NCBI GenBank assembly: GCA_905233995.1
Contig: CAJOGF010000053.1
Span: 1-40,623 of the forward strand
Reading direction: 5' to 3'
Length of the DNA stretch: 40,623 nt
Source of the DNA: an uncultured Bacteroidales bacterium
Lineage (GTDB): Bacteria > Bacteroidota > Bacteroidia > Bacteroidales > UBA3824
Shown here: piece after piece, positions 21,888 to 40,623 of the stretch
Layout of the letters: every line of letters begins with the position of its first letter
How positions within the stretch are numbered: the stretch's first letter is position 1
The notes under the pieces: generated by a model
What the model was told of the DNA's origin: nothing
Database searches by the model: none
The model's input: the letters and a program-made list of their open reading frames with translations, nothing else
Program-made: the position numbers and the translations under genes

Positions 21888-23759
21888 ATGCTGAAGACAT
21901 TTGCTGTTATAATTTTTTGTTTTGTTCTTAATTTTTCTCTTTTGGGACAAGTTAAGGAAACTGTTTTGGATGAAAACTTTACTGATAATCTTGCAGGTTG
22001 GCCTGAAGATATAAACGATATTTATATGGCAAGTGTCAACGGTGGTGTTTATTATTTGGAGCATAAAAGAAATTTTGGCTCTAAGTCTTTTGACATTCCT
22101 TTGCAGTTATATTTAGGCACAAATTATTTTATAGAACTCAAGGGCAAAATTATTTCTGGCGATGCTACCAACGGAATGGGAATCGTTTGGGGTAAAAGTG
22201 ATAATGGGTATTTAAGTTTTGTTATCACTGGCGACGGAAAATTTTATGCTCGAAGAATAGAAAAAGGCTCTAAAGGTGAATATCTTTTGGAGCCTAAATA
22301 TTTGGAAGCCATAAAGAAAACAGGCGGAATTAATACAATTAGGGTTCAGTATTCTGAAGGCGAACTGATGTTTTTTATCAACGGAAAATATGCGGCTCAT
22401 ATTCCGTCTTTAAAATATTTTGGTGACAATGCTGGCATTATTCTTTATGGTCGTCAGAATGTTGAGGTTTATAATTTTGGTGTCTACGGAACCAAAAATT
22501 ACGAGCCTTTGGTCGGTTATAACGCCAAGATGAAATTTTCGTATTGTACCATTGACGATAATGTTAACACCGAAAATGGACTTTTTGGCAATGGAGACTC
22601 CAGAATACAACCCGGAGAGACGGTGAAACTTTCGGTTACTCTAAAAAATCATGGGTATGGAAAAAGTGGAAATTTGTTCGTAAATTTTTATGTTATAAGT
22701 GATTATATAAAAATTATGAACTCCTCTCAAGTTCAGACTTTAAACGATGTGGGCAGAAATCAATCTCAGGTTTTTGATCTTATTTTTCAAGTGTCCGCTC
22801 TTTGTAATTTGGACAATTTGAAATTCAAAATTGACTTGACTGACGATAAAGACCGTCTTGCTGAAAGTCTCACTTTTTCGATTCCAACCAGAACTTATAT
22901 TACGCCAACTAATAGAAAAGGCGATGATAGTTTTACTTTTACGCTTTCATTTCGTGAAACAGCAACCGACGATTTAAATAAAAATTTTCCGATAACAACA
23001 AATAATGGAAAAAATATTTGTGCTGTTGTTGTTGGTATTGAAAATTATCTCAACTATCCAAAAGCCGAGTATGCTTATAATGATGCTTTAATTTTTTATA
23101 ACTATTTGGTGAAAGTTGTAAATGTTCCGCGTCAAAATATCATTTATATTACCAACAAACAAGCAAATCGTTATAGGTTTTCGAGGATTTTTTCTTCTGG
23201 TGGAGAACTTAACACAATAATTGAAAACGGAGCAAGAAATATTATTTTTTATTTTTCGGGACTTGGTGTTACTTCAGCAAATATGTTGCAACCTTATATG
23301 TTGCTTTTTGATTCAGGAACTACGGAGGCTTATAAAACCTCTTATGGCGTTGTTGAATTGCTAAATAATCTAAAGGCTTTGAGGACTGGAAATCTTATTT
23401 GTTTGTTTGAAACTAATTTTGCTGGTCTTGACCGTAGCGGTAAAACAATCTTCAAAACTCCTCAACCGACAAAAAACGTTATTCGTTTTCCTGAAATATC
23501 TTCCGATGATGTTTGTATGTTTTATGCTTCAACAACTTCGCAATTTAATCCTATTGTTGAAACTTCAGCACATGGAATGTTTACAAACTATATTCTTTCG
23601 GCTCTGAAGTCATACGGAGAAGGTCGCAAAACTCTTGATATGGAAAATCTTCATGATTATGTTTATCATAAAATGACCAAACACGCCTTAGAACTTAAAA
23701 TGTTGGTTTCACCGCGAATGGATTGTAAAGGAAGGTACGATATTAAACTGTTAAAATAA
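21888..23759 (+). CDS. Exported multidomain protein: beta-sandwich + Ig-like + inactive caspase-like (C14) domain
   Basis: Signal peptide; GNGDSRIQPGETVKLSVTLKN Ig-like motif; AVVVGIENY, AYNDA, FYFSGLG and HGMFT caspase-fold motifs. Confidence 0.7.
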   Translation: MLKTFAVIIFCFVLNFSLLGQVKETVLDENFTDNLAGWPEDINDIYMASVNGGVYYLEHKRNFGSKSFDIPLQLYLGTNYFIELKGKIISGDATNGMGIVWGKSDNGYLSFVITGDGKFYARRIEKGSKGEYLLEPKYLEAIKKTGGINTIRVQYSEGELMFFINGKYAAHIPSLKYFGDNAGIILYGRQNVEVYNFGVYGTKNYEPLVGYNAKMKFSYCTIDDNVNTENGLFGNGDSRIQPGETVKLSVTLKNHGYGKSGNLFVNFYVISDYIKIMNSSQVQTLNDVGRNQSQVFDLIFQVSALCNLDNLKFKIDLTDDKDRLAESLTFSIPTRTYITPTNRKGDDSFTFTLSFRETATDDLNKNFPITTNNGKNICAVVVGIENYLNYPKAEYAYNDALIFYNYLVKVVNVPRQNIIYITNKQANRYRFSRIFSSGGELNTIIENGARNIIFYFSGLGVTSANMLQPYMLLFDSGTTEAYKTSYGVVELLNNLKALRTGNLICLFETNFAGLDRSGKTIFKTPQPTKNVIRFPEISSDDVCMFYASTTSQFNPIVETSAHGMFTNYILSALKSYGEGRKTLDMENLHDYVYHKMTKHALELKMLVSPRMDCKGRYDIKLLK

Positions 23760-23764
23760 GTAAT

Positions 23765-26077
23765 ATGAAAAAAATTGTTTCTCTTGTTCTGTTTTTTTCT
23801 TTTTTTTGTCTTGTAGTCTCGGCACAAAAAGTTGGGCTTGTTTTGAGTGGAGGAGGCGCAAAAGGTTTAGCACATATAGGTATTTTAAAGGCTTTTGAAG
23901 AAAATGAAATTCCAATTGATTATATTACAGGTACTTCTATTGGTTCAATAATTGGAGCATTGTATGCCTCTGGTTACACAACCGACGAGATGACAGAACT
24001 TTTCAATTCCGAAAGGTTTAAGGCTTGGCTTAGCGGTCAGACTGAAAAAAGTTTGAGATTTTTTTATAAGAAAGAAGACCCTTCGGCCTTGTGGTTCAAT
24101 TTGAGAATGAATGTTGATTCTATTCTAAAAATCTATTTGCCAACCAATATCATTTCGTCCTATCAGATGGATTTTGCTTTTGAAGAAATTATGGGACGTT
24201 CGGCTGCGGCTGCAAAATACAATTTTGATTCGTTGATGGTTCCTTTTCGTTGTGCAGCCTCTGATGTCTACAAAAAAAAGTCGGTAATTTTCCGGCAAGG
24301 ACATTTAAGTACAGCCGTTAGGTCGTCGATGGCGATTCCGCTTTATTTCAAACCTATGATTTATAATGGTAGTTTGTTGTTTGACGGTGGAATTTACAAT
24401 AATTGTCCAATTGACGTTATGGAAAAAGATTTTAATCCTGATGTAATAATAGGTGTTCAGGTTTCAACCAACAACGAGCAACCACAAGAAGATGACCTTG
24501 TTAGTCAAATCGAAAATATGGTTATGGACCCAAGTAATTATTATATTCCCAAGGAGAAAGGAATAATGCTTGTGCCAGATGTTTTAAATCATAGTACGTT
24601 GGATTTTGCGCCCATTGCCGAACTTATCAAGCGCGGTTATGACGAGGCTATTCTTAAAATGGATTCTATCAAGAGTCTTATTTCAAGGCGAGTAACTAAG
24701 GAGGAAATTGAGCAGAAACGTCTTAATTTCAAGTCAAAACTTCCTGAAATGATTTTTGATGAGGTAACTATCAATGGGTTAAGACATTCTCATGCGAAAT
24801 ACGTTTTGTCATCTTTTTCGGATTTCAAAAACGATACTATTGGTCTTGACGGTATGAGAAAAGAGTTCTATAAGGTTGCATCTGACAAAACGTTGGATAG
24901 AATTTATCCTACAACTACTTTCGATGAATCCTCAGGATATTATAGTCTTGACCTTGAACTTACAAAAAGTAAGTCTTTGGGCGCAAAAATTGGCGGAAAT
25001 ATTTCTACTGCAGCCAATTGTGAAGGCTTTGTTGAAGCAGAGTATTTGTTTTGTAATTATATTCCTATTTCTACCAAAGTTAATGGATATTTCGGACGGT
25101 TTTATACTTCTGGTTTGGCTCAGATGAAGGCTTTTTTTCCAAAACCGCTTTTTTCAGTAGAAGCCGCTGTCCAACTTAATCGTTACAATTATATGGAGGC
25201 AGACCCTGACGTTTTTTTTGTTGACACCAGAAGTCCTGTCTCAATAAAACATGATATGGAATATTATACTAATATTTCGGTGCCAATTATGATGGCTGGA
25301 AAATTTTCTTTTGGTTTTTCTGCGGGAAGTTTTTCAGAGCAGTATTATATGTCGCCAAACTTTACATCCTCTGACAAACTTGACAAAACAACGCTCGGAT
25401 ATTTTGGTAGTCATCTTACTTTTCAGTATCAGACATTGAATCATATAACAATGCCGGGCGATGGTATCAATTTTATTCTGAAACTAAAATATACCAAAGC
25501 CTCCGAAAAGTTTATGCCGGGTTTTGATTTCGATGGAGAAAAGTCAGATTTGAGAATAGAGCGTAGAAAATTTTACGACATTTATCTTTATTACGAAAAC
25601 TATTCATTGCGTACCAAAAATGAAAAGATTGGTTTTCCTTTGTCGTTTGAACTCAATTTGAGCAAACATGACAAATTGATGAATCCTATGGCAACTCTTT
25701 TGTCTACAAATGCTTATCGACCTACTGATTATACAAAAACCATGTTGTTTGAAGATTATAGAGCGTTGAAATATGCGGGGTCGAGCATTGGTATAATGTA
25801 TTATTTTTCTGAAGATTTTACTTTTAGATTGTCGGGTTTTGCATTTTTGCCATATCAAAAAGATTTTCTGGTTGTTAATGACACTCGTTTTGAATTGGAA
25901 AGGAAGAAGGCTTTTTCAGGGTTTAAATATTTTTTCAACGCTGCACTTTCGTATCAGACGTTAATTGGACCAATTGCGTTTACTGTCAGGTACGAGCCTG
26001 AAGGTAAGAGCCATTTTTATTATATGTTTAATATTGGTTTTATGCTTTATAATAAGAGTTGGTGGGATAGAAATTGA
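23765..26077 (+). CDS. Patatin-like phospholipase with probable C-terminal beta-barrel (PlpD-like)
   Basis: Signal peptide, LSGGGAKG, GTSIG, DGG; aromatic-rich beta-strand C-terminus (YMFNIGF). Confidence 0.9.
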   Translation: MKKIVSLVLFFSFFCLVVSAQKVGLVLSGGGAKGLAHIGILKAFEENEIPIDYITGTSIGSIIGALYASGYTTDEMTELFNSERFKAWLSGQTEKSLRFFYKKEDPSALWFNLRMNVDSILKIYLPTNIISSYQMDFAFEEIMGRSAAAAKYNFDSLMVPFRCAASDVYKKKSVIFRQGHLSTAVRSSMAIPLYFKPMIYNGSLLFDGGIYNNCPIDVMEKDFNPDVIIGVQVSTNNEQPQEDDLVSQIENMVMDPSNYYIPKEKGIMLVPDVLNHSTLDFAPIAELIKRGYDEAILKMDSIKSLISRRVTKEEIEQKRLNFKSKLPEMIFDEVTINGLRHSHAKYVLSSFSDFKNDTIGLDGMRKEFYKVASDKTLDRIYPTTTFDESSGYYSLDLELTKSKSLGAKIGGNISTAANCEGFVEAEYLFCNYIPISTKVNGYFGRFYTSGLAQMKAFFPKPLFSVEAAVQLNRYNYMEADPDVFFVDTRSPVSIKHDMEYYTNISVPIMMAGKFSFGFSAGSFSEQYYMSPNFTSSDKLDKTTLGYFGSHLTFQYQTLNHITMPGDGINFILKLKYTKASEKFMPGFDFDGEKSDLRIERRKFYDIYLYYENYSLRTKNEKIGFPLSFELNLSKHDKLMNPMATLLSTNAYRPTDYTKTMLFEDYRALKYAGSSIGIMYYFSEDFTFRLSGFAFLPYQKDFLVVNDTRFELERKKAFSGFKYFFNAALSYQTLIGPIAFTVRYEPEGKSHFYYMFNIGFMLYNKSWWDRN

Positions 26078-28600: not shown

Positions 28601-29166
28601 TTAATTTTTTAGTTTCCAACTTCTGATTTTATTGGACATCTCGGCTGCTTTGTTGAGTTCTTGAAGATAAGTTTCAAGTTCTTTCATTGGTTTTGTAACT
28701 GCCACCTGACCTGTACATGCAAATTGCAAAATGCCGTATGGTTTTAGTTGGTCAAAAAGTTTCAAAACTTCTTTTCTTGAACCAGTTTTTTCAACAATTA
28801 TAAACTCTTTTTCAATATCAAGTATTCTGACGTTGAAATCTCTTATCAAGCCTTCCATTGGCGTTGAAATGTTTGCCGTTGAAATTTTGTAAAGAGCGAG
28901 TTCCTGACTTACAACATCTTGTTGTTCATAGTAAAATGCCCTTAAAACCTCCGTTAATTTTTCAATCTGGTCGGCGGCTTTTTTCATCATTTCGGGCGTT
29001 GTTTTGGTAACAATAGTATAGCGGAAAATGCCTTTTATTTCCGATTCTGATGTCGTAAGCGAGTCGATATTATAAAAACTATTGTTATACGGTTCAATAG
29101 TCCAACTTTGTCTTCTGTAAAAACCACAACCGTATATTGTTTTATATTTTCTTCTGTTGTTTTCAT
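28601..29166 (-). pseudogene. ilvN: Acetolactate synthase small subunit, frameshifted (remaining ORF 28601-28990)
   Basis: ATG 29166 gives MKTTEENIKQYTVVVFTEDKVGLLNRITIVF; NIDSLTTSESEIKGIFRYTIV then continues in another frame from about 29071. About 13 nt are missing relative to the paralogue (IFTRHKVNIESL). Confidence 0.85.
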
Positions 29167-29171
29167 TTTGT

Positions 29172-30896
29172 CTAATCGTTACTTACTAATTTCATTTCGT
29201 CAACTGTAGAGCCGGGGGCGATAAATGGCATTACTTTCATATCTTTGTCAACAATTATTTCGAGTAGATATGCGCCTTCGTAAGAGAGCATTTCTTGAAT
29301 TGAGGATTCCAAATCCTCTCTTAATTCAACTTTTTTTGCTTTTATTCCGTATGCTTTTGCAAGTAGAATAAAATCAGGATTTACAAGGTCGGTTTCAGAA
29401 TATCGTTTTCCGTTGAACATATTTTGCCATTGTCTTACCATGCCGAGAACTGAGTTGTTAAGTATGACGATTTTTACGGGAATTTTCTCTTGAATAATTG
29501 TTCCGAGTTCTTGTTCGTTCATTTGGAAACCGCCGTCGCCGGTAAACAATACAACGGGGAAATTTTTCATTTTGTTGGCCTTTGACATAAATTTCTGTGC
29601 TACTGCGGCTCCAACTGCTGCCGGCAGACCAAATCCCATTGTTCCGAGTCCTCCTGAAGTTAAGAAAGTATTCGGATGTTTAAATTTGTAATATCTTGCT
29701 GCAATCATTTGGTTTTGACCAACATCTGTTACAACAATTGCATCTCCTGAAGTTTTTTTCGATACAATGTCAACGGCTTCGCCCATTTGTATTAATGGCA
29801 ATGTAGAATGAGTATCTTTTTTGATTACTTGTTCTAATTCCATTTGATAGAATTTGTCAAATTCTTTTCGCCAACGATTGTAAGTTTTTTTCTCGATTCT
29901 TGGAGTTAAGTATGACAATGCTGATTTCAAATCTCCGTGAACAGATAAATCGGCGGACACGATTTTTCCGATTTCTGATTTGTCGATTTCGATATGTAGA
30001 ATTTTAGCTTTTGTGCCGTAGCCGGAGGTTTTGCCGGTTACTCTGTCCGAAAATCTCATACCGATAGCGATGATTAAATCGGCTTGATTTGTTAACATGT
30101 TTGAGGCGTAACTTCCGTGCATTCCGAGCATTCCTACATTCAGAGGGTGGTCGGATGGCAGTGCAGAAAGTCCCATCAACGTTGTGCCAAACGGTATTCC
30201 TGATTTTTCCACAAATTCTTGAACGGCTTTTTCGGCTCTTGCAATCAGCACGCCATGACCGATAAGAATGAGTGGTTTTTGTGCAGCATTAATCATTTCG
30301 GCAGCCTTGTCGATTGTCTCCTGCGGAATTTCTGGGTAGGGAACATAACTCCTTATGACAGGTGCTTTTTTGTATACGAAATTTGTCTGCGAGGTAAGTT
30401 CATTTTTGGTGATTTCCAAAACCACAACGCCCGGACGTCCTGAAACGGCAATGTAAAATGCTTTAGCCATTGTTTCAGCAATATCTTCGGCTTTAGTGAT
30501 TTGTGCGCTCCATTTTGCAATCGGCATCGAAAGTCCGAACACGTCGGTTTCTTGAAAAGCATCTGTTCCAAGAAATGCGCTTCCAACCTGACCTGTTATA
30601 ACAACAAGTGGCACTGAATCCATGTTAGCATTAGCAATTCCCGTGATAGCATTAGTTGCTCCCGGTCCCGAAGTTACAATGCAGACTCCGGGTTTGCCAG
30701 TAATTTGTGCGTATGCTTGAGCCTCATGAACTGCTGCTTGTTCATGACGAGATAGAATATGATGTATTTTGTCTCTTTTGCTGTAAAGACTGTCGTAAAG
30801 CGGTATTACCGCACCGCCCGGATAGCCGAAAACTGTATCTTGACCTTCTTCTATCAAAGATAGTAATACGGCATCCGCTCCTGAAATTTTTTCCAT
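29172..30896 (-). CDS. ilvB: Acetolactate synthase large subunit (copy 1)
   Basis: FGYPGG, RHEQ, TSGPGATN, DAFQE, GMLGMHG, TDVGQNQM, SGGLGTMGFGLP, GDGGFQMN; ATG 30896 preferred to TTG 30923. Confidence 0.96.
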   Translation of the reverse strand: MEKISGADAVLLSLIEEGQDTVFGYPGGAVIPLYDSLYSKRDKIHHILSRHEQAAVHEAQAYAQITGKPGVCIVTSGPGATNAITGIANANMDSVPLVVITGQVGSAFLGTDAFQETDVFGLSMPIAKWSAQITKAEDIAETMAKAFYIAVSGRPGVVVLEITKNELTSQTNFVYKKAPVIRSYVPYPEIPQETIDKAAEMINAAQKPLILIGHGVLIARAEKAVQEFVEKSGIPFGTTLMGLSALPSDHPLNVGMLGMHGSYASNMLTNQADLIIAIGMRFSDRVTGKTSGYGTKAKILHIEIDKSEIGKIVSADLSVHGDLKSALSYLTPRIEKKTYNRWRKEFDKFYQMELEQVIKKDTHSTLPLIQMGEAVDIVSKKTSGDAIVVTDVGQNQMIAARYYKFKHPNTFLTSGGLGTMGFGLPAAVGAAVAQKFMSKANKMKNFPVVLFTGDGGFQMNEQELGTIIQEKIPVKIVILNNSVLGMVRQWQNMFNGKRYSETDLVNPDFILLAKAYGIKAKKVELREDLESSIQEMLSYEGAYLLEIIVDKDMKVMPFIAPGSTVDEMKLVSND

Positions 30897-30954
30897 TTTT
30901 TTGCTACGTATATTTTGTTGCAAATTAAAAAAAAATTACAAACATCTGCAAATT

Positions 30955-31016
30955 TTTCAATAACAATTTATAATCTGCGGAATCTCGATTTTTTTTGTAG
31001 ATTCCGCAGATTATAA
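30955..31016. repeat. Palindromic direct repeat, left copy (62 bp)
   Basis: TTTCAATAACAAT + TTATAATCTGCGGAATCT-CGA-T8-GT-AGATTCCGCAGATTATAA; 18-bp perfect arms. Confidence 0.95.
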
Positions 31017-31065
31017 TTTGTTATTTCATAAATAATGAGTATTTTTGCCTGTAAATTATTCTATT

Positions 31066-32481
31066 ATGCTTATAGGAAGAGATAAAGAAAAAGTCATATT
31101 ACAAGAGGCTCTTGACAAAGAAGAATCTCAATTTATTGCGGTTTACGGACGTCGTAGAGTTGGTAAAACATTCTTAATTAGAGAAAGTTATGGTTATCAA
31201 TTTTATTTTCAGTTTACGGGAGCCGCACATACTTCATTGAAAAATCAATTAACAAGATTTGTTTTTGCTCTTCAAGAGCAAGGCTTAAAAGATGCTCCGA
31301 GGCAAATTAATTCTTGGTTAGAAGCCTTTAGTTTGTTAAAACAACTTATAAACCAGAAAGATGGAGGAAAAAAAGTTATTTTTTTAGACGAACTTCCATG
31401 GCTTGACTCTCCAAGGTCGGGATTTTTGTCAGAATTGGAAGTTTTTTGGAATGGTTGGGCTTCTGCACGAAAAGATATAGTGCTTGTAGTTTGTGGAAGT
31501 GCTACTTCTTGGATGGTTAATAAAATCATAAAAAACAAAGGTGGATTACATAATCGTCTTACTCAACGTATTGCTTTAAAACCGTTTACATTGAAAAATT
31601 GTAAACAATTGACCATAAGTAATGGTGTAGAATTTTCGCAACGGCAATTGCTTGAAGCCTATATGATTTTTGGTGGTGTACCATATTATTGGAGTCTGCT
31701 AAAAAAGGGAGCAAGCCTTGCTCAAGAGATTGATAGATTGATATTTTCTGAGGACGGCGATTTGTATGACGAATTTAGTATGCTATATGCTTCGCTTTTT
31801 AAAAAGCCAGAGCCGTATATAAAAGTTATTTCGCTTTTGTCGAACAAAAATTATGGCATGACTCGTCAGGAATTGATTTCGGCAGGAGGGTTCGACGAAA
31901 ACGGTGCGTTTTCCGACCTCTTGTCCGACCTTGAATGGTGTGGTTTTATTCGTTCTTATCAAAACACAGGTAAACGGGTGAAAGATGTTGTTTATCAGTT
32001 GATTGATAATTATACTGTATTCTATTATTCGTTTGTAAAAAATAGGCGACGCTCAAAAAACTATTGGCAATCCATGCAAGGTAAACCCGAATACAACGCA
32101 TGGTGCGGTCTTGCTTTTGAGCGGGTTTGCCTTTGGCATACCGAGCAAATAAAGGCAAAACTTGGTATCAGCGGCATTGTTACTACCGAATATGCTTGGC
32201 GTAATGTTGCAAACAATGAAATTTCTGGTGCGCAGATTGATTTGCTAATTGAGCGTGGTGACGGTATTATTGATATTTGTGAAATAAAATTTTCCGTTGA
32301 AGAATATTCAATCACAAAAGAATATATGGAAAAATTGTTGCATAAAAAATCTGTATACAAAAGTGTTACAAAAACTCGTAAAGCAGTTCATTTGGTTATG
32401 ATAACAACTTTTGGTTTAACAAAAAATGCTTATTTTGGAGAGATTCAAAACGAGGTTGTAGCAGATGATTTGTTTCAATAA
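31066..32481 (+). CDS. AAA ATPase (archaeal-ATPase type) with C-terminal PD-(D/E)XK/DUF234-like domain
   Basis: LIGRDKE, Walker A YGRRRVGKT, Walker B IFLDELPW, VCGSA, GGVPYY, GLAFE, GAQIDLLI...ICEIK; -7 element at 31040-31047; ATG 31066. Confidence 0.9.
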   Translation: MLIGRDKEKVILQEALDKEESQFIAVYGRRRVGKTFLIRESYGYQFYFQFTGAAHTSLKNQLTRFVFALQEQGLKDAPRQINSWLEAFSLLKQLINQKDGGKKVIFLDELPWLDSPRSGFLSELEVFWNGWASARKDIVLVVCGSATSWMVNKIIKNKGGLHNRLTQRIALKPFTLKNCKQLTISNGVEFSQRQLLEAYMIFGGVPYYWSLLKKGASLAQEIDRLIFSEDGDLYDEFSMLYASLFKKPEPYIKVISLLSNKNYGMTRQELISAGGFDENGAFSDLLSDLEWCGFIRSYQNTGKRVKDVVYQLIDNYTVFYYSFVKNRRRSKNYWQSMQGKPEYNAWCGLAFERVCLWHTEQIKAKLGISGIVTTEYAWRNVANNEISGAQIDLLIERGDGIIDICEIKFSVEEYSITKEYMEKLLHKKSVYKSVTKTRKAVHLVMITTFGLTKNAYFGEIQNEVVADDLFQ

Positions 32482-32535
32482 CAATTTATAATCTGCGGAA
32501 TCTCGATTTTTTTTTGTAGATTCCGCAGATTATAA
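32473..32535. repeat. Palindromic direct repeat, right copy (63 bp); probable terminator between convergent genes
   Basis: Identical to 30955-31016 except T9 instead of T8; includes the ATPase TTT CAA TAA end. Confidence 0.95.
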
Positions 32536-32546
32536 AATTAAAACCA

Positions 32547-33107
32547 CTATTTTTCTTCTTGTTTTTCCAAATCCGAAAGATAGTCTGTGAGTTTGCCCAT
32601 TGGTCTTGTTACGATTACTCGTCCTGACTGGATAAATTCTCTAACATCGTAACCTTTAAGTTGTTTTGAAAAATCCTCAATATCGTCTAACGTGCCAGTT
32701 TTTTCAATCACAAAAAATTCTGGCTCTAAAGCAATTATTCTTGCCGAATGGTTTTTTATTAAATCAACCAACGAATTTTTTGCAGTTATGCCTTTGGTTG
32801 AAATTTTAAACAAGGCTATTCCCATTGCGATAACTTGATTTTCGTCGTATAAAAACGCTTTTAAAACTTCAACTTGTTTTTCTATAAGTTTCCTTAAATG
32901 CTCTGCCTGATCTTTTGTGGTATTTATCGTTATGACAAACGAATGTATACCTTCTGTCATTGCAGTTGAAGTGTTAAGCGATTCTATATTTACTTTGTGT
33001 CGCGTAAAAATAATCGAAATTCTATTTAGAAGTCCGACATGGTTTTCTGTGTAAATCAGCAATGTGTATTTTTGACGAGTATTATCTTGATTGTTTTTGT
33101 TTTCCAT
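32547..33107 (-). CDS. ilvN: Acetolactate synthase small subunit (copy 2, intact)
   Basis: ACT domain ENHVGLLNRISIIFTRHKVNIESL, IEKQVEVLKA, EKTG, SGRV. Confidence 0.93.
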   Translation of the reverse strand: MENKNNQDNTRQKYTLLIYTENHVGLLNRISIIFTRHKVNIESLNTSTAMTEGIHSFVITINTTKDQAEHLRKLIEKQVEVLKAFLYDENQVIAMGIALFKISTKGITAKNSLVDLIKNHSARIIALEPEFFVIEKTGTLDDIEDFSKQLKGYDVREFIQSGRVIVTRPMGKLTDYLSDLEKQEEK

Positions 33108-33109
33108 TT

Positions 33110-34837
33110 TTATTCTTTTTCTTGAGCGGTTAATAACATTTGGTCAACTGCTTTTCCGGCTGGGATTACGGGGTAAATATTTTCTAATTTTTCAACTGTA
33201 ACCTCAATAAAGTAACTTCCGGGGTAATTTAGCATTTCGTCGATTGCAGAATCCAAATCTTCCAAAAGTGTAACTTTTCTTGTTTTGATTCCGTATGCTT
33301 GTACAATTTTTTCAAAATCAGGATTTTGCATTGCTTTGAAATAGTCATGCGATTGATAATACAAATCTTGAAGTTGCCGAATCATTCCCAAATAATTGTT
33401 GTTAAGAAGAATCATTTTTATTGGCAATTTGTATTGCATTATTGTTCCTAATTCTTGAATTGTCATCTGAAAACCACCATCGCCCATAAAACAAACCACA
33501 TTTCTTTTGCCCTTACCATACGAGGCACCTATTGCTGCAGGTAGTCCAAACCCCATTGTTCCGAGCCCTCCTGAAGTGATAAAAAAGTCGTTGTCCTTAA
33601 ACTCAAAATATCTTGCCGTTGCCATTTGATTTTGACCAACATCTGTTACCACAACTGTTGCATCTTTTATTTTGTTGCTAATTGCTCTAACGGCTTTTCC
33701 CATTTTTAAAATGCCATCGTCTAAGGTTTTGTTTGAGTATTTTCCTAAGTCTTTGTTGATGACTTTTTCTTGCTCTTTTTGCCTTAAACTTTCCATTTCT
33801 TCGAGCCATTCGTTGTGAAAATTTTTGCTAATTTTCATTAGAAGTTGTTTTAAAGCCGATTTTGCGTCTGCAATTATATGTACATCGGTTTTAACAACTT
33901 TGTCAATTTCCGACGGATCGATTTCTATGTGAATGATTTTGGCATTTTTAGCATATTGAGCCACATTTCCTGTTACTCTGTCAGCAAACCTCATTCCGAT
34001 TGCTAAAAGTACATCGCAACGATTTGTCATAATGTTAGCGGCATAGTTTCCGTGCAGACCAACCATTCCAGCGTAAAGCGGATTTGAAGTTTCAAAGGCC
34101 GATAGTCCAAGAAGTGTTGTCGCAACTGGAATTTGCGCTGTTTCTGACAGGTTTTTTATCAAATCTTTGCAACCCGAAATTAGTACGCCGTGTCCAACAA
34201 TCATTAAAGGCTTTTTGGCATTGTTCAAAAGTTGAGATGCTAAATCTATATCCTTTTCAATTGGTTTTAGTTTTGGGTGATAACTGCGGATTTTTTCGCA
34301 TTTCTGATATTCAAATTTTTCAATAATTTGAGTTTGAGCATCTTTTGTGATGTCAATCAGTACTGGGCCGGGTCTACCGCTACGGGCTATGTAAAAGGCT
34401 TTTGCAAGTGTTGACGGTATTTCTTCGGCTTTTGTTATTTGATAATTCCATTTTGTAACAGGCATCGAAAAGCCGACAACATCGGTCTCTTGAAACGCGT
34501 CATAGCCGAGTTGAGGTGTCAACACTTGACCTGTGATGCAAACTATCGGTGTGCTGTCGAGTTGAGCGTTTGCAATGCCGGTAAGCAGATTTGTCGCCCC
34601 CGGTCCTGAAGTTACCATACAAACGCCGACCCTCTTGTTGACGGCAGCGTAACCTTCAGCAGCATGAACTGCGCCTTGCTCATGCCTTACCAAAACGTGT
34701 TTGATTTCATTCTCGTGTTTATAAAACGAATCGTAAATTGGAAGATTACTTCCGCCGGGATAGCCGAAGACTGTGTCAACGCCTTCCGCAATAAGTGCTA
34801 ATGTAACCGCTTCAGCACCGTTAATATTTTCTACCAT
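33110..34837 (-). CDS. ilvB: Acetolactate synthase large subunit (copy 2)
   Basis: FGYPGG, RHEQGA, TSGPGATN, SGRPGPVLIDI, TDVGQNQM, GDGGFQM; -7 element at 34863-34870 (minus). Confidence 0.96.
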   Translation of the reverse strand: MVENINGAEAVTLALIAEGVDTVFGYPGGSNLPIYDSFYKHENEIKHVLVRHEQGAVHAAEGYAAVNKRVGVCMVTSGPGATNLLTGIANAQLDSTPIVCITGQVLTPQLGYDAFQETDVVGFSMPVTKWNYQITKAEEIPSTLAKAFYIARSGRPGPVLIDITKDAQTQIIEKFEYQKCEKIRSYHPKLKPIEKDIDLASQLLNNAKKPLMIVGHGVLISGCKDLIKNLSETAQIPVATTLLGLSAFETSNPLYAGMVGLHGNYAANIMTNRCDVLLAIGMRFADRVTGNVAQYAKNAKIIHIEIDPSEIDKVVKTDVHIIADAKSALKQLLMKISKNFHNEWLEEMESLRQKEQEKVINKDLGKYSNKTLDDGILKMGKAVRAISNKIKDATVVVTDVGQNQMATARYFEFKDNDFFITSGGLGTMGFGLPAAIGASYGKGKRNVVCFMGDGGFQMTIQELGTIMQYKLPIKMILLNNNYLGMIRQLQDLYYQSHDYFKAMQNPDFEKIVQAYGIKTRKVTLLEDLDSAIDEMLNYPGSYFIEVTVEKLENIYPVIPAGKAVDQMLLTAQEKE

Positions 34838-38430: not shown

Positions 38431-39870
38431 ATGTCAGACAACAATATTCAGCGCAGTATAACAACTGTGACAGCAAGAAATCTTGCGGACACAACTAAGA
38501 CCCCGCCGCAGATGGGTTCCATCACTCCAAGATTATTATTGAAATTACTTCCTTGGACACAAGTGGAAAGCGGAACTTACAGAGTAAATAGAACAAAAGT
38601 TGAACTGAAAAAAGCAGAAAGAATTGTAATTCAGTATTTTGAAGGTGTTCCAAGTTTTACCGCAAAAAATCTCAAAGCAATTCCGCTTTTTTTAAATATT
38701 GATTCGGAAATTGTTTCAGACCTTGCAAAAAATTTTGTTCCTGTTGAGGTAAAACGTGGCGAAAATCTCGTTACGCAAGGTAAAGATAAGCAAAAATTTT
38801 TTATCGTTGCTAATGGTCAGGCTGAGGTTATCAGTACGGGGCTTCACGGTGAGGAATTGAGAATTGCGCTTTTGTCAACGGGAGAATATTTTGGGGAGGC
38901 TGACCTTTTGTCTGCTGCTGATTCTACTGTTTCGGTTAGAGCCGTTACGGATTCAGTTTTTCTTCAACTTGACACTCCTGTTTTGGAAAAACTTATTAGC
39001 GAAAAGCCAAATTTCCGCGAACAATTCAATAATGCTGTTAACGAGCATTTGAGACTAAAGGCTACAGTAAACGATCATGGCGAAAAACATATCGACCTTG
39101 TAAGCGGACACGAAGAGGATAATATTATCCCTGAAACTTATATTGATTATGACGAAAATCCAACTGAATATCAATTAAATACGCTTCAGACTGTTGTTCG
39201 TGTTCACACTCGTGTCAGCGACCTTTACAACAAACCATACAATCAGTTGGAACAGCAATTAAGACTTTCAATCGAAAGTCTAAAAGAGCGTCAAGAGTGG
39301 GAACTTATTAATAATAAAAAATTCGGACTTTTGGCTCAAGCCGCTCCGGGTTATAAAATCAGCACTCGTTATGGTGCTCCAACTCCTGACGATTTGGACG
39401 AACTTTTAACTCTTGTTTGGAAAGAGCCTGCGTTCTTTATTGCTAATCCGAGGGCTATTGCTGCTTTCGAGAGAGAATGTACATGGCGTGGAGTTCCGCC
39501 CGTTGCAATCGACCTTTTCGGAACCAAAGTGATAACTTGGCGAGGCGTGCCGATTGTTCCTTCCGACAAAGTGGAAATCAAAGGTCAGTATTTGACAAAC
39601 AGAGGTGTCGGCACAACAGAAATCATTCTTGTTAGAACCGGCGAAAAAGAGCAAGGCGTTGTTGGACTTCATCAAGCCGGCATTCCGGGCGAAATTGCTC
39701 CGTCGCTTTCTGCAAGGCTTATGGGGCTTGACCAGTTTGGTGTAGCAAGTTATTTGTTGACAAAATATTTCTCTCTTGCAAGCCTTACTGACGATGCAAT
39801 TGCAGTGCTTGAAAACGTGGAAGTTGGATATTATCATGATTATCAGCACAGAAACCAAATTGAAAAATAA
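38431..39870 (+). CDS. Family 2B encapsulin nanocompartment shell protein (cNMP-binding domain inserted)
   Basis: Family 2 motifs ARNLADTTKTPPQM, LLKLLPW, GTYRVNR, LRVHT-like VRVHTRVSDLYN, ERQEWELIN, PTPDDLDELL, WRGVPIVPSDK, GVVGLH; 479 aa with an internal cNMP-like domain (GEYFGE). Confidence 0.92.
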   Translation: MSDNNIQRSITTVTARNLADTTKTPPQMGSITPRLLLKLLPWTQVESGTYRVNRTKVELKKAERIVIQYFEGVPSFTAKNLKAIPLFLNIDSEIVSDLAKNFVPVEVKRGENLVTQGKDKQKFFIVANGQAEVISTGLHGEELRIALLSTGEYFGEADLLSAADSTVSVRAVTDSVFLQLDTPVLEKLISEKPNFREQFNNAVNEHLRLKATVNDHGEKHIDLVSGHEEDNIIPETYIDYDENPTEYQLNTLQTVVRVHTRVSDLYNKPYNQLEQQLRLSIESLKERQEWELINNKKFGLLAQAAPGYKISTRYGAPTPDDLDELLTLVWKEPAFFIANPRAIAAFERECTWRGVPPVAIDLFGTKVITWRGVPIVPSDKVEIKGQYLTNRGVGTTEIILVRTGEKEQGVVGLHQAGIPGEIAPSLSARLMGLDQFGVASYLLTKYFSLASLTDDAIAVLENVEVGYYHDYQHRNQIEK

Positions 39871-40556
39871 TGTACTGCAGCGAATTTTTAAGATTTTCGC
39901 CTGACGAACTTTCTGTTTCTGACAGGTCGTTGTTTGAAGGAGTAATAAAAAAATATTTCTCTGAAGACTTAAAACCTGTACAAGTTGATAATAGAAAATT
40001 TTCCGATTTCGGCGAAGAAGATTTTCAGGGCAATAGAAAATGTTTGCTCAAAGATGACGGCTTTGGAATCGGTATTCCTGAGACCGAAATCGTCAAAAAA
40101 CTTAGTTATGATGAGGTTGACACGATAAATTCGGAGCAAGTCCGTTTGCAATTTCCTATTCTTCATCAAAAGGTAAACGGTCATGACCTAATTTGGTTTG
40201 ATAACGGCGCAACAACGCAAAAACCGCTCAGCGTGATAGAAGGGTTAAGTGAGTTATACAAAACTGATTATTCCAACATTCATCGTGGAGCGCATACTTT
40301 GGCTGCTCGTTCTACCGATAAATATGAACAAGCAAGAAACAAGGTTGCGAAATTTATCAATGCTCCAAATAGCGAAAATATAGTTTTTGTGCGCGGAACA
40401 ACCGAAGGTATAAATCTTATTGCTCATACTTTTGCGCAGAAATATCTTCTTGAAGGTGATAATGTTATAGTTTCAACACTTGACCATCACGCTAATATTG
40501 TGCCTTGGCAAAGTATGTGCAACCTCAATTCCGAAAGTCTAAAATTTTTTCGATAA
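39870..40556 (+). pseudogene. SufS-type cysteine desulfurase (encapsulin cargo type), 3'-truncated
   Basis: About 87 aa N-terminal extension, then FPIL, WFDNGATTQKP, SNIHRGAH, FVRGTTEGIN, HHANIVPWQ. Homology stops near 40520, before the PLP Lys and catalytic Cys motifs. Confidence 0.85.
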
Positions 40557-40623
40557 AAAAATATTTTTTACCTTGTAATTTTTTTATGACTGTAAAAATG
40601 TAAAGTTTAGTTTGCTCCTAAGG

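Follow-up and report, generated by a model that had tools for sequence, protein, structure and literature searches.

How does a single gene without a recombinase of its own come to lie, in antisense and enclosed by two nearly identical palindromes, between ilvN and a second ilvB (ilvB2) in an uncultured rumen Bacteroidales bacterium? The locus was analysed in a window that covers the whole of contig CAJOGF010000053.1 (40,623 nucleotides [nt]), part of a metagenome-assembled genome (MAG) of 3.4 Mb in 331 contigs that is 90.75% complete with 6.8% contamination. We read the segment at 30958–32535 as a non-autonomous mobile gene cassette ended by its own long palindromes, with a probability of roughly 0.6. 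Its order is left palindrome, putative promoter, PDC-S27-family gene, and a right palindrome whose start lies within the final codons of the gene. Comparisons with other genomes showed that the inserted unit includes both palindromes, that it occupies different sites in congeners, and that the cargo varies between the same ends. Below, G000 is the source genome and other G numbers are genomes of the genus, L numbers are loci or metagenome contigs, C numbers are contigs of the source genome, and X numbers are public runs; coordinates without a label refer to the window (Table 1).

An earlier reading of the sequence alone (the original prediction) had described two direct repeats that bracket one gene and differ by one T, perfect inverted arms in each, and last codons supplied by the right repeat and recurring in the left. 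All of this was confirmed. The sole difference between the copies is one extra T in the T-run of the loop. The core of the left palindrome consists of 18-nt perfect arms (30968–30985 and 30999–31016) around a 13-nt loop that includes a run of 8 T. On the right, where the perfect arms reach 19 nt, the inner arm extends to 32477 and the outer arm lacks the last 8 nt that the left copy has. The final two codons and stop of the gene (TTTCAATAA, 32473–32481) occur a second time at 30955–30963. Four occurrences of the 16-nt arm core were counted in the window, compared to a mean of 0.44 in 100 shuffles, none of which reached four; a chance origin of the repeats is excluded. Folded as single-stranded DNA, the left and right palindromes have energies of −23.2 and −18.5 kcal/mol (z = −11.5 and −7.4).

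The left junction is spanned by an independent public contig (X8 record 27, 30658–31076) and the right junction by two contigs from other studies (X5 record 22 and X10 record 7, about 31717–32771). An independent metagenome contig, L191, has the same order of ilvB-ilvN-palindrome-gene-palindrome-ilvB2 and encodes a protein that is 99.4% identical. With both junctions bridged in this way and the order repeated in L191, the structure is not an assembly artefact, and the assembly duplication that the original prediction had named as a way to fail is ruled out. In public contigs, the length of the T-run in the right loop differs among strains. Run X2 has one joint that goes back 3678, at the ends of the stretch.

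Exact copies of the repeat in the source genome are limited to these two. The arm core was searched in 25 genomes of the genus, and complete palindromes were found in 12 of them, at 1–3 per genome. Assignment to the repetitive extragenic palindromic (REP) sequences, bacterial interspersed mosaic elements, or REP doublets forming hairpins (REPINs) was rejected on these counts, as tens to hundreds of copies would be needed. The palindrome is therefore no abundant REP-like repeat, the other failure that had been anticipated.

Filled and empty sites were compared to define the inserted unit; the empty alleles come from other species, with flank identities of 70%–87%. Homology of the flanks to G012, G019, and G007 stops at 30957 and restarts at 32546–32548. 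In G012, a member of the same genus, the ilvB2 and ilvN flanks are 14 nt apart and the spacer has no copy of the palindrome, so both copies arrived with the insert. Relative to this empty site, the insert lies between ...TTTTTC and TAAAA... in an AT-rich spacer, some 11 nt beyond the 3′ end of ilvN. It measures about 1.58 kb including both palindromes, and no target duplication is visible between the window and the G012 site. Two other cassettes of the source genome repeat this pattern. A cassette with a paralog of the gene (C126) is filled there, whereas in G012, G019, and G007 the site has neither insert nor palindrome. A DUF4143 cassette (C145) is likewise filled there and its site is empty in G017 and G023, with no such palindrome in the G023 spacer, the one that was read.

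These sites separate what holds in the original prediction from what does not. A discrete, recombinase-less, single-gene insertion with its own (putative) promoter is supported, and no integrase or transposase family had a match among 30 of the 33 listed window open reading frames (ORFs) of at least 150 amino acids (aa), in agreement with the claim that none is nearby. The expected empty allele exists in G012, but without the single hairpin that it was expected to carry. Integration at, and duplication of, a terminator-like hairpin is not supported, given the palindrome-free empty sites of the ilv, C126, and C145 (G023) units. Recombination between the repeats was also proposed, and solo palindromes elsewhere are what it would leave behind; given palindrome-free empty sites, excision would not restore ilvN-hairpin-ilvB as the ancestral state. 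The cassette is antisense to the ilv genes, with the ilvN stop about 11 nt from its end. A position between two ilvBN operons holds for the position itself, whereas the second 'ilvN' (28601–28990) is only a 129-aa fragment with ALS_ss_C and no ACT domain. The same ilvB2/ilvN spacer contains 5.9 kb of other genes in G007 and 11.9 kb in G003 and is a variable, defence-like hotspot.

The same palindrome occurs in other contexts. Orthologous palindrome-gene-palindrome units were identified in six congeners at 73%–80% nucleotide identity, with both palindromes in every context seen. Three of these (G021, G008, and G005) share one context, G004, G015, and G012 have the unit in three others, and metagenome contigs L193 and L205 add further ones. 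The G012 ortholog, located elsewhere in that genome, has 80% nucleotide identity and matches from palindrome to palindrome. Stems are more conserved than the gene across orthologs, and loops vary, even to the point of being inverted between orthologs or, in G004, between the left and right copies. At L237:1501–2789 (G004) and in the G004 ortholog unit, the left and right loops are reverse complements (AGC/GCT; T-run/A-run). This flip/flop of loops resembles hairpin-end elements and can reflect either the mechanism or spontaneous inversion between arms.

Cargo varies between the same palindromes, which enclose a 48.5% paralog in L202/L194 and AAA_14+DUF4143 ATPase genes in G012 and G019. An array in G012 has three palindromes (L021 4856–4918, 6380–6428, and 7837–7891) and two divergent genes. 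Solo palindromes were found in G001, G007, and G024, as a third copy in G005, and on L195, L196, and L199, and number 0–1 per genome in the census. One decayed unit (L206) retains only the last ~105 residues (375–478) of the gene between two palindromes. Synteny is repeatedly one-sided, with homology that passes one palindrome and stops exactly at its far foot (L195 vs. L200; L025 vs. L206; G001). No solo-palindrome allele had both flanks shared, and G001, L195, and G007/L206 share one flank only. A flank search in the source genome gave no clean empty site for the ortholog contexts; where G012 has its array, the homologous site of the source genome holds a single arm from another palindrome family. 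Because the same palindrome flanks unrelated cargo, it is no gene-specific operator; it is a boundary element and not a gene-specific signal.

The source genome contains 16 full-length PDC-S27 paralogs (38%–46% identity) and two partial ones. A perfect stem of at least 10 within 250 nt upstream was found for 10 of 13 paralogs, compared to 101 of 1137 other ORFs of at least 300 aa; if an A/T-run loop is required as well, 8 of 13 and 35 of 1137 remain. Stems of the paralogs differ in sequence and share a common architecture of a long stem, often with ...CGGAAT... beside the loop, and an 11–19-nt A/T-run loop. Direct repeats of at least 42 nt flank five of the 16 paralogs. Repeats of at least 25 nt flank 18 of 67 usable homologous loci in public genomes, mostly of rumen and gut Bacteroidales, and none of 115 shifted controls. 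The start of the downstream copy usually falls in the range from 15 nt ahead of the stop to a few tens of nt past it, and at some homologous loci two or three palindromes that differ in their loops follow one another in tandem.

A genome-wide census of direct repeats was heterogeneous and was therefore used only as a list of cargo. Repeat-flanked units of the source genome, only some of them with hairpins, carry SoFic-like Fic, AAA_14+DUF4143, AAA-ATPase_like+PDDEXK_9, PDDEXK_2, HepT-like, DUF3843, and restriction-modification genes. Copies of the C145 unit elsewhere end exactly at the right foot of the hairpin in three of three complete copies. A SoFic-like cassette between repeats of 68–75 nt is 99% identical in G018, where it has another context, and the Fic cassette extends from immediately behind a host stop codon to a hairpin foot. 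The cassette at ilv was shown to belong to a genome-wide and Bacteroidales-wide population of repeat-bounded cassettes that carries PDC-S27, AAA_14/DUF4143, and SoFic-like genes.

Other observations concern these sites. The host gene end that carries the Fic cassette in G000 (C1:27451) carries in G007 a solo palindrome of a different family (L180:3080–3150), which in G000 lies upstream of the C30 paralog. Palindromes of different families have repeatedly landed at the same gene ends. On C145 (600–700 and 2130–2230), the DUF4143 cassette is itself nested within another repeat pair with its own hairpin (GTAGAGACG...CGTCTCTAC), which is also present on C19 and C46. A direct repeat around a PDC-S27 paralog on C139 (6320–6378 and 8268–8325) looks like a tRNA 3′ half (…GATTCGAACTCG…), which points to an att-type repeat from an element that carries an integrase and not to a palindrome cassette.

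We propose that the palindromes act as recombination ends where cassettes may be gained, lost, and swapped. Loss would occur by recombination between the direct copies, producing a circle of ~1.52 kb with one palindrome and a solo scar. Re-insertion of this one-palindrome form, circular or concatemeric, would regenerate the terminal repeat; such an event fits the identical copies and a left copy that is a full version of the palindrome overlapping the gene's end, with its boundary set exactly where the 27-nt arm begins. Entry into naive sites would depend on an enzyme acting in trans that reads structure more than sequence, because the palindrome families differ in sequence yet share stem/loop architecture. 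A further role of the hairpins is probably to insulate or stabilise the transcript. Among candidate enzymes, we rank an as yet unknown or structure-specific activity above Xer, Y1, and integron-type enzymes.

Several observations weigh against the cassette reading. The empty ilv alleles are from other species only, and an intermediate with a solo palindrome at ilv is possible. All 23 public runs listed consisted of contigs, with no raw reads or RNA among them; the four that were compared contained neither an excision product nor a circle junction nor an empty allele at ilv, although contigs cannot reveal rare forms. Left and right loops differ in other species, and regeneration of the terminal repeat is drawn from the source genome alone. 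Among single-gene repeat-flanked units, only seven of 23 have a perfect stem of at least 8 in the left copy, and the direct-repeat census mixes in coding repeats, tandem paralogs, and tRNA-like fragments. No candidate enzyme among the recombinases and transposases of the source genome was tied to the palindromes. PDC-S27 itself is a common candidate that is unvalidated as defence (PMC12988326).

An alternative, in line with the original prediction, is that a circular one-gene cassette recombined, site-specifically or by homology, with a single hairpin already resident in the ilvN-ilvB2 spacer, giving attL and attR. It would account for copies that are identical except for one T, for solo palindromes of the same family at other loci, and for arrays that share palindromes between genes, and different cargo within the same palindrome is as expected for entry into resident palindromes. 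We nevertheless consider it improbable. The G012 ilv site is empty without a palindrome, as are the empty sites of the C126 and C145 cassettes, host terminators look different, and solo copies are so rare (0–1 per genome) that a resident target at ilv is unlikely.

Another alternative treats the palindromes as expression elements only (stabiliser or terminator, insulator, operator) that arose by local duplication or gene conversion and spread passively by horizontal transfer and illegitimate recombination. The stop codon is indeed where the right palindrome begins, and the left one directly precedes the putative promoter; no mobility enzyme was found for them in the source genome, and other hairpins are common downstream of genes (170 of 1137 ORFs). 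Set against this, unit boundaries are sharp and, across independent contexts, fall at the ends of repeats and hairpins, unrelated cargo is found within one and the same palindrome, palindromes occur solo and in tandem without genes, and no T-tract follows the stem. We consider this idea improbable as well. An intrinsic terminator was rejected separately, as the loop is 13–14 nt and the tail 3′ of the right copy is AATTAAAACC. Terminators seen in the genus, including nearby ones, have a GC-rich stem followed by a T-run, and neither palindrome was flagged in a terminator scan; the label of terminator-like hairpin is not supported. An Rfam scan of 30700–32800 (E value up to 5) returned only sub-threshold matches to generic hairpins (microRNA precursors).

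A bolder possibility, which we regard as a long shot, gives the cargo itself a role in movement. The abundant orphan families of Bacteroidales that combine an AAA-ATPase with PD-(D/E)XK (PDC-S27, AAA_14/DUF4143, and AAA-ATPase_like/PDDEXK_9) might cut or resolve cruciforms formed by the long perfect palindromes with their A/T-rich centres, mobilising their own cassettes and, in trans, those of Fic, DUF3843, and others. Resolution of a cruciform in the one-palindrome circle would yield a linear molecule closed by hairpins on either side, and this form, once unfolded and filled in, would begin and end with the palindrome in one orientation. Identical copies and a left boundary that falls on the initial base of the 27-nt arm match such a course. 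If true, these genes would be selfish first and defensive second, and the cassettes a new class of structure-specific mobile elements.

We give little credence to a passenger-carrying relative of IS200/IS605, similar to palindrome-associated transposable elements (PATEs), or of REPINs, moved as single-stranded DNA by a Y1 (HUH) transposase in trans. In its favour are the hairpins in direct orientation at both ends, with no requirement for terminal inverted repeats, the lack of target duplication at the three junctions compared, a left end some nt before a hairpin and a right end near a hairpin foot, and the three Y1-type genes of the source genome. These three genes face dozens of palindrome families, and the one clear IS200-type gene has different, GC-rich hairpins. 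The perfect 18–27-bp stems and 11–19-nt loops are unlike those of IS608-type ends, the repeats reach beyond the hairpin, and no common 4–5-nt target is seen next to the left ends, of which the flanks compared (TTTTC, ATTAT(AA), ATAA, and CTAA) have no clear word in common. The weakest alternative, an assembly duplication or chimera in a contaminated MAG of many contigs, can be dismissed, as contigs of other studies and L191 bridge the junctions.

The cargo gene most likely starts at ATG 31066, as indicated by alignment with 15 paralogs, rather than at TTG 31045. A TAnnTTTG box (TATTTTTG) ends 19 nt before the ATG, with TTTG a further 19 nt upstream of the box, and the box is found at the equivalent position in six orthologs. 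This pair at 31017–31047 is a putative Bacteroidetes-type promoter. The prediction of a defence-type ATPase-nuclease cargo agrees with a full-length match to the PADLOC profile PDLC04984 of PDC-S27 (E value 2.7e-198, 657.7 bits, residues 2–470 on positions 4–473 of 474). Pfam PF01637 (ATPase_2) was matched at 53.6 bits, above its cut-off of 33.2. No NCBIfam family was matched by the gene, and a sequence search of the Protein Data Bank gave no match at E values up to 1.

The whole-protein model has a predicted local distance difference test (pLDDT) score of 91, and its first ~360 residues resemble 2qen, 2fna, Orc1/Cdc6, and STAND NTPases (best Foldseek match 2qen, E value 1.7e-12, then 2fna and Orc1). 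GRRRxGK and DExP motifs are invariant in the 16 paralogs, and with the modelled fold they identify the product as a predicted Walker-type ATPase with an ORC/Cdc6-like fold. The archaeal proteins PABY2304 (2qen) and SSO1545 (2fna) are similar to the N-terminal two thirds of the cassette protein; at ~350 residues, they do not have its C-terminal nuclease-like domain. Modelled alone, the last 140 residues have a pLDDT of 93.7, and the best folds are 1y88 (E value 3e-4), MspJI, McrC, NucS, and Hjc (E values 3e-4 to 0.1, template modelling scores 0.4–0.5). The order of secondary structure fits the alpha-beta-beta-beta-alpha-beta core of PD-(D/E)XK, and residues E352, D392, D399, and E406-x-K408 are invariant in the 16 paralogs. 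Sequence support for this domain is weak (SduA, E value 0.0037; with the C-terminal part alone, Pfam gave only MmcB-like, 0.18), and DUF234 had no match. On these features, the domain is assigned to the PD-(D/E)XK superfamily as a predicted nuclease. By family membership only, the cargo would most likely serve as an NTP-driven nuclease in phage defence.

Among known systems, the closest include integron gene cassettes, with those of CALIN clusters and the defence cassettes of sedentary chromosomal integrons; their attC sites carry R″/R′ boxes (RYYYAAC...GTTRRRY) in an imperfect hairpin with extrahelical bases. Compared by eye, the outer boxes here (CAATAAC/GTTATTT) share only AAC/GTT with this consensus. 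The units resemble integron cassettes in being promoter-independent, single-gene, and recombinase-less, in having imperfectly conserved hairpin sites at or over the stop codon, and in keeping the site architecture while its sequence varies between cassettes; arrays share sites in both. In contrast, the palindrome units have no integron integrase or attI platform and are dispersed singly, the arms are perfect over 18–19 nt with no extrahelical bases, and palindromes are found at both unit ends, both of which enter naive sites, whereas an attC cassette has one 3′ site and inserts at attI or next to another attC. The source genome encodes XerC- and XerD-like recombinases, one other integrase, one IS200-type transposase, and two weak Y1 transposases. 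An integron integrase was rejected because the three tyrosine recombinases score 143, 114, and 43 bits against TIGR02249 (cut-off 265) and none reaches it in this 90.75%-complete genome. Integrons are rare in Bacteroidetes (PMC9024848), and integron cassettes are enriched in defence and toxin-type genes, a further likeness (10.1101/2024.07.02.601686).

The cassette also has features of three other kinds of element. In the pdif modules of Acinetobacter plasmids, recombinase-less genes lie between palindromic sites and are thought to be moved by XerC/XerD. Paired palindromes around recombinase-less modules and the XerC/XerD-like genes of the source genome are similar to this arrangement. The arms of 18–27 nt and A/T loops of 11–19 nt (13–14 nt at ilv) differ from 11-6-11 dif-like sites, the sequences differ between families, and the units are chromosomal, in another phylum, with no dif-like arms demonstrated. 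A pdif assignment (28-bp XerC-6-XerD sites) was rejected on the 13–14-nt spacers and 18–27-nt arms, and a dif-like reading of the palindrome plus a 17-nt extension was unconvincing by eye against the Escherichia coli dif sequence. IS200/IS605 elements, PATEs, and REPINs with their REP-associated tyrosine transposases (RAYTs) have hairpin ends, no target duplication, and non-autonomous forms moved in trans, and subterminal hairpins at both ends without target duplication, as in IS200/IS605 and PATE, were found here. They differ from the cassettes in copy number (tens to hundreds vs. 1–3 per genome), in the many unrelated palindrome families, and in the cargo genes. At C15:20700–21760 (L188), an IS200-type Y1 gene lies amid GC-rich REP-like hairpins (CCCCGCACATCATCG...) in both orientations, an arrangement that is RAYT/REP-like and unlike the cassette palindromes. 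Mobile insertion cassettes have passenger genes between insertion sequence (IS) ends and no transposase. They are similar in having a passenger gene between repeated ends and an enzyme in trans, and the four palindrome arms are formally terminal inverted repeats; here there is no matching IS and no target duplication, and each end is a full hairpin, with the ends in direct repeat.

The cassettes are thus non-autonomous gene cassettes with hairpin sites, a known kind, in a palindrome-bounded PDC-S27/DUF4143/Fic form that was not found described. A literature search that excluded most subscription journals and supplements gave no description of palindrome-flanked PDC-S27, DUF4143, or Fic cassettes, and the available part of PMC12988326 does not link PDC-S27 to flanking palindromes or mobility.

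Candidate defence genes are numerous and patchy in gut and rumen Bacteroidales, and in Proteobacteria integrons shuffle single genes. The locus serves as a worked example, for which filled, empty, solo, array, and decayed forms are documented along with near-identical copies across species. Taken together, these reveal a system of hairpin-bounded cassettes in which PDC-S27, DUF4143, and SoFic-like genes are packaged, and offer an explanation for the 16 or more copies of this ATPase-nuclease family per genome. Should there be a dedicated mechanism, it would constitute a new way in which immune genes are shuffled, and the palindromes would be a practical marker for new cargo genes.

Table 1. Coordinates of the cassette, its parts, and the flanking ilv genes in the window
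Feature	Position	Strand	Details
Inserted segment (whole cassette)	30958..32535	+	right end uncertain by ~3 nt inward and up to 10 nt outward
Left direct-repeat copy	30955..31016	+	62 nt; pair aligned over 63 nt at 98.4%
Left palindrome	30959..31025	.	arms 30959–30985 / 30999–31025, 27 nt at 96%
Putative promoter	31017..31047	+	TTTG 31017–31020; TATTTTTG (TAnnTTTG) 31040–31047
PDC-S27-family gene	31066..32481	+	471 aa: AAA+ ATPase, winged-helix region, C-terminal PD-(D/E)XK-like domain
Right direct-repeat copy	32473..32535	+	63 nt; covers the final two codons and stop of the gene
Right palindrome	32485..32536	.	19-nt perfect arms 32485–32503 / 32518–32536; loop 14 nt, run of 9 T
Host ilvB and ilvN	32547..34837	-	ilvB 33110–34837, ilvN 32547–33107
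Host second ilvB and ilvN fragment	28601..30923	-	ilvB 29172–30923; fragment 28601–28990

The surroundings of the cassette yielded additional observations. The ilvB2/ilvN spacer of G003 holds a patatin-like phospholipase gene and a caspase-domain protein (L023:2822–7032), and that of G007 holds a UvrD-like helicase cluster. Near the ilv genes of the window, at 21888–26077, a patatin-like phospholipase gene adjoins a gene for a 620-aa protein, whose G003 counterpart has a caspase-domain match. At 38431–40556, a type 2A encapsulin shell gene (SrpI-like, with a cyclic nucleotide-binding domain) lies ahead of a gene for a class-V aminotransferase (cysteine-desulfurase-like), which the contig end truncates. 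A hairpin with a 10-bp stem at 40553–40587 is also found at the ends of C119, C123, C23, C326, C34, C59, C79, and C96. Nine contig ends in all have this hairpin at a distance of 34–70 nt, so that the end of the window falls in a multi-copy repeat that is probably an IS end. Another family (AACGGCAAAATATT...) is found at a dozen contig ends.

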